Made by a program: the position numbers and the translations under genes
In this document: positions 15,467 through 63,190 of the stretch, piece after piece
Layout: the number at the start of each line of letters is the position of its first letter
Numbering within the stretch: the stretch's first letter is position 1
Assembly: GCA_963736675.1 (NCBI GenBank)
Contig: CAVTPT010000002.1
Location: 352,361-416,360 of the forward strand
DNA from: an uncultured Bacteroidales bacterium
Lineage (GTDB): Bacteria > Bacteroidota > Bacteroidia > Bacteroidales > VadinHA17
DNA length: 64,000 bases
Direction of reading: 5' to 3'
The notes under the pieces: model-generated
What the model saw: only the letters and a program-made list of their open reading frames with translations
What the model was told of the DNA's origin: nothing
The model's database searches: none

Positions 15467-15551
15467 AATGAAACCCACATGTATTGAAAACATAAACACT
15501 TATGTATATAATATTCTGAAATGCGGGTTACATCAGACAATTAAAATAAAA
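15467..15551 (+). repeat. ~85-nt hairpin element, copy 1
   Basis: aatgaaacccacatgt-[38 nt]-aaatgcgggttacatcagacaattaaaataaaa aligns along its whole length with the reverse complements of 52436-52521 and 62929-63013. Confidence 0.7.
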
Positions 15552-15622
15552 TATGAGTATCCGGAATGAAGAACAATTAAACTGGAATGACAATTCATTT
15601 TATATAAATTTGTAAACAAATT

Positions 15623-52425: not shown

Positions 52426-52435
52426 CAGATTATAA

Positions 52436-52521
52436 TTTTTATTTTAATGGCCTGATGGAACCCACATGTCTGAATATTATATACATACTTGTTTGTGTTT
52501 GCATTACATGTGGGTTTCATC
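52436..52521 (-). repeat. ~85-nt hairpin element, copy 2
   Basis: The minus strand reads gatgaaacccacatgt-[38 nt]-acatgtgggttccatcaggccattaaaataaaaa. The stem is 15/16 bp. It ends about 12 nt before the kinase ATG (52425). Confidence 0.7.
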
Positions 52522-61732: not shown

Positions 61733-62917
61733 TTATTTATAGAGCAGGTACTTCTGCCTGATCGCGGAGAATTTCCTGAGACCCTCTTTCCAGGTACTTT
61801 TTATCTCCTCTGAACTCATTCCCTTCTGTATCTGCTCCCTTAAAACCGGACCTCCCGCAAGTACATCAAAATAGGGAATAAAGAATTTATCCTTTTCCGG
61901 ATAATCATTCCAGGCATCGATAAGCCAGTCGAGATTAATTCCAGGCTTTGGAACAAAACCCATCTTTATTGACTCCCTCAGATCGGTACCGAAACATTTT
62001 ACTCCCGCAAGCGGAGGATTTTTTGCTCCCGGCAGACTACGGGGCGTAAAACTGAATCCCCGGTCAGGCAGCAAAGGTGATCCATATACCTGGAAAGGGA
62101 ATCCGGTGCCCCTGCCAGGTGAAACCTTTGTACCCTCAAAGAAACAGAGCGAAGGGTAAAGGTATACTGAAGTCTGGTTCGGCAGGTTCGGCGAGGGTTT
62201 CACAGGTAGTTCATAGAGGGTTTCGTGAGTGTAGTTTTTACACTTAATGACGGTCAGGTCGCACTGGATCCCATTCTTAAGCCAGCCTTCCCCATTGACC
62301 ATCAGAGCATATTCACCAACAGTCATTCCATGAACAATTGGAACGGCATGCATCCCGGTAAATGAGCTGTATGCTGTGTCGAGGATATTTCCATCGATAT
62401 AAAAGCCATTAGGATTCGGCCTGTCAAACACAATGCATTTCACATTATTCTCGGCACATGCCTCCATAACATAGCAAAGCGTCGAAACATAAGTATAGAA
62501 CCTTACTCCCACATCCTGGATATCAAAAATGACAATGTCGATTCCTTTCAGGTCGTCAGGAGAAGGCTTACGGTGAGAGCCATAGAGGCTTATGACAGGC
62601 AGTCCTGTACCTGCGTCCTTTGTGTCATCAATAATTTCCCCGTCTGATGCAAGATCGCGGAATCCATGCTCGGCAGCAAAAATGGCTGTTAATCCATCAG
62701 GATTGATTTCTTTATTCATAAGGTAATCAACAAGATGGATCTGCCCTACCATTGAAGTCTGGTTAGCCACCACAGCAACCGACCTGCCTTTTATAAGATG
62801 GCCGTAGAGCTCTATCTGCTCAGCCCCGGTTACCGGAACATCCTTTGCACCACGGCAGGCAACCGGAATGACTATTATTGTAGTTATGAACAAGATGAAG
62901 GATCCGCTTTTTATCAT
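61733..62917 (-). CDS. DUF1343-family protein (NamZ-like exo-muramidase family)
   Basis: IDIVIFDIQDVGVRFYTYVSTL and FDRPNPNG. Confidence 0.7.
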   Translation of the reverse strand: MIKSGSFILFITTIIVIPVACRGAKDVPVTGAEQIELYGHLIKGRSVAVVANQTSMVGQIHLVDYLMNKEINPDGLTAIFAAEHGFRDLASDGEIIDDTKDAGTGLPVISLYGSHRKPSPDDLKGIDIVIFDIQDVGVRFYTYVSTLCYVMEACAENNVKCIVFDRPNPNGFYIDGNILDTAYSSFTGMHAVPIVHGMTVGEYALMVNGEGWLKNGIQCDLTVIKCKNYTHETLYELPVKPSPNLPNQTSVYLYPSLCFFEGTKVSPGRGTGFPFQVYGSPLLPDRGFSFTPRSLPGAKNPPLAGVKCFGTDLRESIKMGFVPKPGINLDWLIDAWNDYPEKDKFFIPYFDVLAGGPVLREQIQKGMSSEEIKSTWKEGLRKFSAIRQKYLLYK

Positions 62918-62928
62918 AATATAGTTTT

Positions 62929-63013
62929 GATTTTAATGGTCTGATGTATTCCACATTTTGACAAAATAATATTTATAAGTGTTTGTGTTAGCATACCATG
63001 TGGATTTTCATCC
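62929..63013 (-). repeat. ~85-nt hairpin element, copy 3
   Basis: The minus strand reads gatgaaaatccacatgg-[...]-atgtggaatacatcagaccattaaaatc. It ends about 12 nt before the DUF1343 ATG (62917). Confidence 0.65.
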
Positions 63014-63190
63014 GATAAATTATTATTAACGTAAAACTAACATTTTTTGGACAATCCCGGATTATCTGTCGCCAGGTCATCTGATGGTTCTTCTGTTTCA
63101 TCCGTCTTAACCCATATTAAGGAGGGTGAATCCGCAATAATATAGATTACCCCGGAGAATTTATTAATTTTGACCCTGTTAAATCAAAAT

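Follow-up and report, generated by a model that had tools for sequence, protein, structure and literature searches.

A ~95-nt hairpin repeat at ATGAAA start codons of uncultured Bacteroidales is probably a gene-sparing mobile element

The window analysed here, a 64,000-nt stretch of DNA from an uncultured Bacteroidales genome, carries three copies of a long hairpin, which precede the genes for a CDF exporter (copy 1), a histidine kinase (copy 2) and a DUF1343 protein (copy 3; Table 1). A first-pass annotation of the window had reported the three hairpins at these places and in these orientations, which we confirm, and had taken them to be units of ~85 nt. Alignment of the copies together with their flanks reveals that the hairpin is part of a longer conserved unit of ~95 nt, with a period of 95 nt, which runs from ATGAAAC to the ATG of the gene. 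With the boundaries drawn in this way, copies 2 and 3 directly abut the gene starts, instead of ending ~12 nt short of the ATGs as had been thought, and copy 1 sits 52 nt upstream of the exporter ATG (15623). The 3′ end of copy 1 is aberrant (CCGGA-ATGAAG), and the 20-codon ORF that follows it is incidental.

The 16-nt stem arms of the window copies (GATGAAACCCACATGT and ACATGTGGGTT(C/A)CATC) are present as previously described, as is the compensatory C-G to T-A change in copy 3, although the stem of this copy also contains one extra mismatch. The copies are closely similar, with BLAST E-values down to 1e-39 between them, and copy 2 folds as RNA into the full stem, hereafter P1, at -36 kcal/mol (z = -5.3 versus shuffles). 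The present start codon of the DUF1343 gene is the ATG supplied by the element, 3 nt upstream of a decayed hexamer, and the product of the gene begins MIKS. The same ATGATAAA junction as in copy 3 is found at C3:324740.

Table 1 Features of the three window copies, and loci of the mini-hairpin variant. Coordinates are window positions unless a contig or locus is named.
Feature	Position	Strand	Remarks
Copy 1	15468..15565	+	98 nt, divergent 3′ end; nhmmer match C2:367828-367911 +, 67.7 bits
Copy 1, ATGAAAC	15468-15474	+	
Copy 1, 5′ arm	15471-15482	+	
Copy 1, 3′ arm	~15520-15529	+	
Copy 1, CATCAG	15531-15536	+	
ATGAAG hexamer after copy 1	15566..15571	+	Target-type repeat; opens only 4 codons
Copy 2	52426..52520	-	95 nt; BLAST, nhmmer, empty sites, RNA fold
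Copy 2, ATGAAAC	52520-52514	-	
Copy 2, 5′ arm	52517-52506	-	
Copy 2, 3′ arm	52469-52459	-	
Copy 2, P2 5′ strand CATCAG	52457-52452	-	
Copy 2, A-rich tail	52451-52429	-	
Copy 2, junction CTG|ATGAAA	52420..52428	-	Second ATGAAA hexamer
Copy 2, P2 3′ strand CTGATG	52428-52423	-	
Histidine-kinase start codon	52425-52423	-	
Copy 3	62915..63011	-	Sub-family A′, 97 nt; nhmmer match C2:415281-415367 -, 57 bits
Copy 3, ATGAAAA	63011-63005	-	
Copy 3, CATCAG	62946-62941	-	
Copy 3, element-internal ATG	62917-62915	-	Present start of the DUF1343 gene
Decayed target hexamer ATAAAA	62909..62914	-	Formerly ATGAAA; copy 3 3′ junction
Promoter-like box TTAGTTTTAC	63030..63039	-	19 nt upstream of copy 3 5′ ATG
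Mini-hairpin variant, source genome (G000)	C5:214761, C3:349804		
Mini-hairpin variant, other genomes	L045, L052, L112, L157-L164 and others		

Read in the direction of the gene, the unit can be written as upstream-ATGAAA[CCCACATGT...loop...ACATGTGGGTT-c-CATC-NN-ACCATTAAAATAAAAATTATATA-NN-G]ATGAAA-gene. Its left end is ATGAAAC and its right side is ATTAAAATAAAAATTATATA-CTG followed by the ATG of the gene, with ATGAAA at either end. Its parts are a 5′ arm (AAACCCACATGT), an A/T-rich loop of 36 nt containing ACACAAACAC and TATATAAT, a 3′ arm (ACATGTGGGTT), a CATC-NN box, a tail (ACCATTAAAATAAAAATTATATA) and NN-G, which stands directly before the ATGAA(A) of the gene. In the alignment, the true ends of the element, ACCCACATG... 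and ...ATATACTG (ACCCAC... and ...ATACTG), do not form an inverted repeat, which lies instead within the element, and the orientation of the element relative to the hexamer is invariant. The main form, sub-family A, is accompanied by A′, which is one base longer and includes copy 3, and by sub-family B, which is 89 nt long with rewritten stems and whose four copies each adjoin another unit in a tandem array. A further form has a 21-nt G+C-rich hairpin added after the 3′ arm. Variants with a G+C-rich mini-hairpin of 19-22 nt (e.g., CCCCGCTTGAGCGGGGCAGGCT) between the 3′ arm and the CATC box were seen at several loci (Table 1), and this insert has the look of a module added on, or of a REP nested in the element. 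Tandem units have one ATGAAA in common, both in the source genome and at the loci of other genomes. Identity among copies is 85-99% over loop and stems alike, which indicates recent copying.

The three copies originally noticed belong to a far larger set. The source genome (4.06 Mb in 5 contigs, 42% G+C, 100% complete) yielded 40 strong matches when a single copy was used as BLAST query, and an iterated nhmmer profile recovered 49 copies at or above 40 bits together with ~10 that are weak or partial. When compared with ATG-started ORFs of at least 100 aa with overlaps removed, a set that amounts to crude gene calls, 47 of the 49 copies share the orientation of the next downstream ORF, and the majority stop 3-6 nt short of its ATG by HMM coordinates, i.e., they abut it; copies within one genome are related, so that such counts overstate the number of independent events. 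The upstream gene is also co-oriented in 32 cases, sometimes at a distance of only 10-40 nt, which places copies within operons. When public genomes were scanned with a pattern, the element turned up in many MAGs of uncultured Bacteroidales, the sources being digesters, sludge and biofilms, and 83 copies at 80 loci in other genomes keep the same rule: after the unit comes either ATGAA with a long open frame or a further unit. The earlier judgement that a fixed orientation near start codons distinguishes the hairpin from a random REP is borne out by these numbers. Within the genus, 16 of 24 genomes contain the element, with 0 to >60 candidates each, and there are matches in two other genera of the order, in one of which the match is single and weak.

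Among the Met-Lys gene starts of these genomes, ATGAAA (TTTCAT on the opposite strand) is the most frequent. The sixth base of the motif at the 3′ end, which follows ATGAA, is A in 91% of copies as against 56% in the background of ATGAA-started ORFs, so that the full hexamer ATGAAA is what is repeated. ATGAA sites that carry no element amount to 1037 at ORF starts, 2096 elsewhere in non-coding DNA and 13140 within genes. Purging of intragenic insertions alone would predict ~33% of copies at starts, whereas ~80% are observed, and hence an extra context preference or selection must act.

Filled sites were also compared with empty ones. The histidine-kinase locus is filled in the source genome and in G004, and it is empty in G042, G048, G071, G076, G008 and G021, i.e., in 6 of the 7 relatives examined. 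The empty sites consist of an upstream stop codon, 11-18 nt and a single ATGAA(A/G/T), with ATGGAA in G021, while the source genome reads ...AAAAG ATGAAA CCCACATG...AATCTG ATGAAA GAAAAAAGG at this locus. Upstream of the DUF1343 gene the element is absent in 11/11 relatives, in 9 of which the gene starts with ATGAAA. For copy 1 an empty site was also sought in the relatives, where synteny is not conserved and the locus offers no comparison. These sites show target-specific insertion at ATGAAA, in one orientation, that leaves the hexamer on both sides. The fixed position of the hairpins is accounted for by this insertion rather than by a shared regulatory role. The presence of ATGAAA at both ends of filled sites and once in empty sites fits a TAM plus a TEM, and fits equally well a 6-bp target-site duplication made by another enzyme.

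The DUF1343 genes of the relatives carry a conserved box, TTAGTTTTAC, ~19-22 nt before the ATG, and in the source genome the box lies 19 nt before the 5′ ATG of the element. It is seen ~20 nt before the DUF1343 start codon of several species (homologous sites in L195 and L200), and is likely to be a Bacteroidetes -7 promoter element that ends in A/C instead of G. Since this native promoter-like box is kept upstream of copy 3, the whole unit is probably transcribed, and the element would become part of the mRNA 5′ leader at least at the DUF1343 locus. In several other relatives (L192, L193, L196, L199 and L201) the region upstream of the DUF1343 gene holds different palindromic repeats, AACCGCAAAG...CTTTGCGGTT, and CACAAAGG / CACAGAG arrays, which are another dispersed repeat family of the genus.

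Covariation of the stem, sought across the genome and its relatives, is present. We compiled 68 non-redundant units with <92% identity from the source genome, its relatives and other MAGs; the MAG loci were fetched with a pattern that requires exact P1 arms, and P1 is informed only by the copies of the source genome and its relatives. Over the upper part of P1 and a second helix, P2, 95.6% of cells are paired and double-sided changes occur in 9 pairs. The covariation score is 0.166 versus 0.064 ± 0.006 in shuffles, a value reached by 0/500 shuffles, and sliding the helix partners gives much lower values. P2 comprises 6 bp formed by CATCNN, immediately 3′ of the hairpin, with NNGATG, which consists of the last three bases of the element and the rebuilt ATG. 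Double changes are found in 4 of its 6 pairs, with pair 79/105 being UA in 30 units and GC in 28, and its variants include AG/CT, AT/AT, TG/CA, CG/CG, GTG/CAC, ACG/CGT and TCG/CGA. P1 in turn has been rewritten with compensation in another genus, from CCCACATGT/ACATGTGGG to CATCCATGT/ACATGGATG and CATACATGT/ACATGTATG. At the foot of P1, the upstream ATG is paired with the CAT(C) that is also used by P2, and the two ATGs thus compete for one partner. Wobble pairs are symmetric in P1 (G-T 12, A-C 10) and favour the gene sense in P2 (G-T 11 versus A-C 2), in small numbers and from copies that are not independent; the P2 asymmetry fits an RNA or top-strand structure better than it fits mobility on the bottom strand.

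We consider it probable that each hairpin is one copy of a non-autonomous mobile DNA element of ~95 nt that carries no gene and spreads among uncultured Bacteroidales by inserting at the ATGAAA of start codons and rebuilding the ATG. No published description of this Bacteroidales element was found in the literature searched. The element integrates at ATGAAA in one orientation, after which the hexamer flanks it on both sides and the gene that has been hit keeps an intact start codon, now preceded by the A-rich tail of the element. SD-like motifs occur in only 6.8% of genes of the source genome, and the A-run of the tail lies at -11 to -15, where native genes have their A peak (-14 to -10); the tail mimics the native translation-start regions of Bacteroidota. 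The kept start codon with its A-rich tail explains why copies survive before essential genes and look like leaders aimed at genes. Movement of the element on single-stranded DNA most likely requires P1 and P2. The bottom strand reads, in order, TTTCAT | CAG, a ~23-nt linker, the putative guide CTGATG 5′ of the hairpin foot, the hairpin, and TTTCAT |, and we infer that one internal guide could pair with either end, which would be the cleavage-site logic of IS200/IS605 worked on a single hairpin. As a side effect, the element would be transcribed within the 5′ leader, where it may alter translation through the pairing of P2 with the AUG of the gene and of the P1 base with the old AUG. An effect on expression is thus possible.

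The first-pass annotation had favoured a 5′-leader RNA structure or a promoter/operator module; that the unit belongs to the leader is probable, at least at the DUF1343 locus. A host cis-regulatory leader or operator common to a regulon, be it riboswitch-like, an attenuator RNA or a repressor site, would account for the strict orientation, the adjacency to start codons, the covarying helices, the excess of G-U over A-C in P2, and the competition of P2 and the P1 base for the same CAUC, by which each sequesters one AUG. However, relatives have the same genes without the element, copy number among congeners ranges from 0 to >60, units occur in tandem, and the 85-99% identity over loop and stems points to recent copying. 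The functions downstream are unrelated and include the housekeeping genes kdsA and glpK. Pfam assigns 10 downstream proteins to a NifB/X-type domain protein, a methyltransferase, KDO8P synthase, tagaturonate epimerase, a PQQ propeller protein, an acyl-CoA ligase, an M2/M3 peptidase, a LytS-type kinase, MlaE and glycerol kinase, which speaks against a regulon signal. In line with the earlier remark that the hairpin resembles no known riboswitch or sRNA, no Rfam family matches the element at E <= 1 at five loci with copies. The pattern of presence and absence largely refutes a regulatory leader, which we regard as very improbable. A portable promoter, in which the loop provides an outward-facing promoter for the downstream gene, is only slightly less so. 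A sigma-70-like TTGCAN-N17-TATAAT (TTGnnn-N16-18-TATAAT) is present in 42 of 126 copies, the loop contains a near -7 box, TAATTTTC, and many copies follow a co-oriented gene, where an internal promoter could matter; yet the exact Bacteroidetes -7 consensus, TAnnTTTG, is found in only 3/126 copies, and the DUF1343 locus has kept its native promoter-like box upstream. Boxes of the sigma-70 type are not known to be used by the primary sigma factor of Bacteroidetes and are not expected to work in the phylum.

Two further possibilities concern the frame that runs through the hairpin. The element might deliver ribosomes, in the manner of MIRUs, with translation starting at the old AUG through the native leader, passing through the hairpin in a 31-codon frame and re-initiating on the gene at a UGA/AUG overlap (UGAUG). 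The consensus does run from ATG to TGA with a TGATG overlap, the stop overlaps the ATG of the gene (TGATG or ATGA) in 60/113 copies, the variant with the 21-nt GC-hairpin keeps the frame, some +1 variants are compensated, and insertion at start codons with a coupled ORF has a precedent in MIRUs (PMC12548453). Against this, substitutions lack codon-position bias (0.095 / 0.075 / 0.094), premature stops occur in 16 of 55 units as compared with 17.9 +/- 3.3 in a neutral simulation, two of the three frames end in the tail anyway, and the coupled frame is missing from whole sub-families, namely A′ (at +1), B and the forms of other genera. The even substitutions and the neutral level of stops imply that the 31-codon frame is not a gene and that its openness is not detectably selected after insertion. 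Ribosome delivery is in our estimation unlikely as the explanation of the hairpins, but it is compatible with a mobile element, as a mechanism by which the gene is spared. That the frame instead defines a family of small protein genes, with the 31-residue peptide MKPTCIA.TNTYVYN.QTCG.HQTIKIKIIY, is scarcely credible: it is open in roughly half of the copies and has two conserved Cys positions, but there is neither a third-position excess nor avoidance of stops, the Cys codons are the two hairpin arms, and the frames differ between sub-families. An inverton was rejected on account of a 36-nt spacer that is too short and of the lack of any copy with an inverted loop, with the reverse-strand HMM matches reflecting arm symmetry only; an integron attC site was also rejected, as copies are dispersed at core genes with empty sites and not in cassette arrays.

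For the mobile element that we favour, we searched for the enzyme that moves it. No cognate transposase or TnpA with matching ends was found in the complete genome or its relatives, nor was a TnpB found. Y1_Tnp genes occur in 57/61 genomes of the genus, including genomes free of the element, and are absent from G020 and G042, which are rich in it. A Y1 transposase was rejected as the mobiliser, since a profile across the genus gave no correlation with presence of the element, and the local Y1 genes belong to another REP family; the Y1 loci of relatives that were examined hold no element sequence. The two Y1 genes of the source genome, RAYT-like HUH genes of ~152 aa located outside the window (C4:374186-374647 and C4:1039566-1040024), are flanked on each side by short G+C-rich REP hairpins, GTCCCTACGGGAC / GCTCCTACGGAGC, next to TACAAACAGGTCGC, and contain no element sequence in their flanks. 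These genes and their REPs are a REPtron-type system distinct from the ~95-nt element, and their REP also borders Y1 genes in G014 and G007. A fragment of an IS91-like Y2 transposase (C5:261789-262253) is found within 8 kb of an IS110-family transposase (C5:268009-269929), and two further diverged IS110 copies with 76-81% identity lie on C1; IS110 and IS91 genes were rejected as mobilisers, being unrelated to the element. A search for an autonomous parent, with the ends separated by a coding region, returned only chance matches and one copy outside the window (C4:172032-172337), in whose loop sits a nested ~200-nt insert with AATGAGT...ACTCATT at its borders; this insert may itself be a small mobile element of another kind. 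There is no replication-strand bias, with 21/35 copies co-oriented with the leading strand versus a gene background of 60%. Such a bias is not strictly defining for IS200/IS605, since excision of ISGst2 is strand-independent (PMC10055086).

By analogy, the nearest known systems would be MIRUs in behaviour, and PATEs and the REP/RAYT system in mechanism. PATEs are gene-less derivatives of IS200/IS605 elements (IS608, ISDra2 and ISGst1-5) and are moved by the Y1 HUH enzyme TnpA on single-stranded DNA. In IS608, cleavage sites are recognised through base pairing with a guide that lies 5′ of each hairpin (PMC5934647), and ISGst elements have covarying pairs of TAM/TEM and guide, and gene-less PATEs exist among them (PMC10055086). 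The element described here likewise lacks terminal inverted repeats, has asymmetric ends and a sub-terminal hairpin, and is present in tens of gene-less copies per genome. If its two hexamers are not a target-site duplication, it would also resemble PATEs in inserting next to a fixed motif of 5-6 nt in one orientation, with a related motif at its end. Its TTTCAT ends in TTCAT, which is the TAM of ISGst5 (PMC10055086). In both cases the segment directly 5′ of the hairpin foot pairs and covaries with an end or target (PMC5934647, PMC10055086); here CTGATG occupies this position on the bottom strand and P2 covaries, as is characteristic of an IS200/IS605 guide. Unlike PATEs, which have separate LE and RE hairpins, the element possesses one covarying hairpin and one guide for both ends, with no second hairpin unless P2 is counted, and its pairing spans the junction, with 3 nt of target and 3 nt of element. 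It further differs in that no TnpA or TnpB has matching ends, in showing no replication-strand bias, and in a target that coincides with start codons, to which the element supplies a translation leader.

MIRUs, the mycobacterial interspersed repetitive units, are apparently mobile short repeats that lie at start codons in the orientation of the gene, with an internal ORF whose stop overlaps the gene start, so that the gene is spared (PMC12548453). The present element shares the insertion at start codons, the co-orientation, in 60/113 copies the overlap of stop and start, and the occurrence as single units or short tandems, also inside operons. It belongs to another phylum, and the likeness is one of position and behaviour; long covarying hairpins with a guide helix are not a described feature of MIRUs. 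In the present element the coupled ORF is without sign of selection and a defined hexamer target is duplicated. REPs and REPINs with their RAYT (TnpA-REP) are also short, abundant, hairpin-forming extragenic repeats, and both they and the element would probably be handled by a Y1 HUH enzyme that acts on a single hairpin with an adjacent recognition motif. The REPs that flank the RAYT-like genes here are, however, of different sequence (GTCCCTACGGGAC), and REPs have neither a long A/T-rich tail nor a rebuilt start codon. They mostly lie after genes and in either orientation, not on start codons. Correia elements and MITEs, which are moved by DDE transposases, are comparable as non-autonomous units of ~100 bp that are co-transcribed with their neighbours and can change expression, but they have terminal inverted repeats, a symmetric TA duplication and insertions in both orientations. 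A MITE with such repeats and a target-site duplication was rejected, given ends that are not inverted repeats and an orientation invariant relative to the hexamer.

We tentatively suggest, as a possibility that falls short of an even chance, that the element founds an undescribed class of mobile DNA that homes on start codons. Such a unit would rely on a single hairpin and on one guide that pairs alternately with the left junction (P2) and the right end (the P1 base), would owe its movement to an enzyme that differs from a canonical IS200/IS605 TnpA, possibly a RAYT-like or housekeeping HUH protein or something else, and would have evolved to be harmless through the complete Bacteroidota-type translation start, A-rich leader and ATGAAA, that it delivers. 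If this self-guide model is true, few known targetable mobile DNAs would be smaller than this 95-nt unit with its programmable 6-bp guide.

For annotation, the finding means that dozens of identical "structured leaders", "micro-ORFs" and "riboswitch candidates" before unrelated genes in Bacteroidales MAGs would be the insertions of one mobile element. Together with MIRUs, it would provide a second, apparently independent, bacterial repeat that targets and repairs start codons, and it bears on how selfish DNA may colonise gene-dense genomes without killing genes, the essential kdsA included. The tail may show what a minimal translation-start region of Bacteroidota looks like, which would help in building expression tools for a phylum that lacks Shine-Dalgarno signals. 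Presence or absence of the element at individual sites could be used as a strain marker. Furthermore, through the insertions ~50 mRNAs per genome acquire a hairpin of 12-16 bp and a helix that pairs with the AUG, which may be a natural source of variation in expression between strains.
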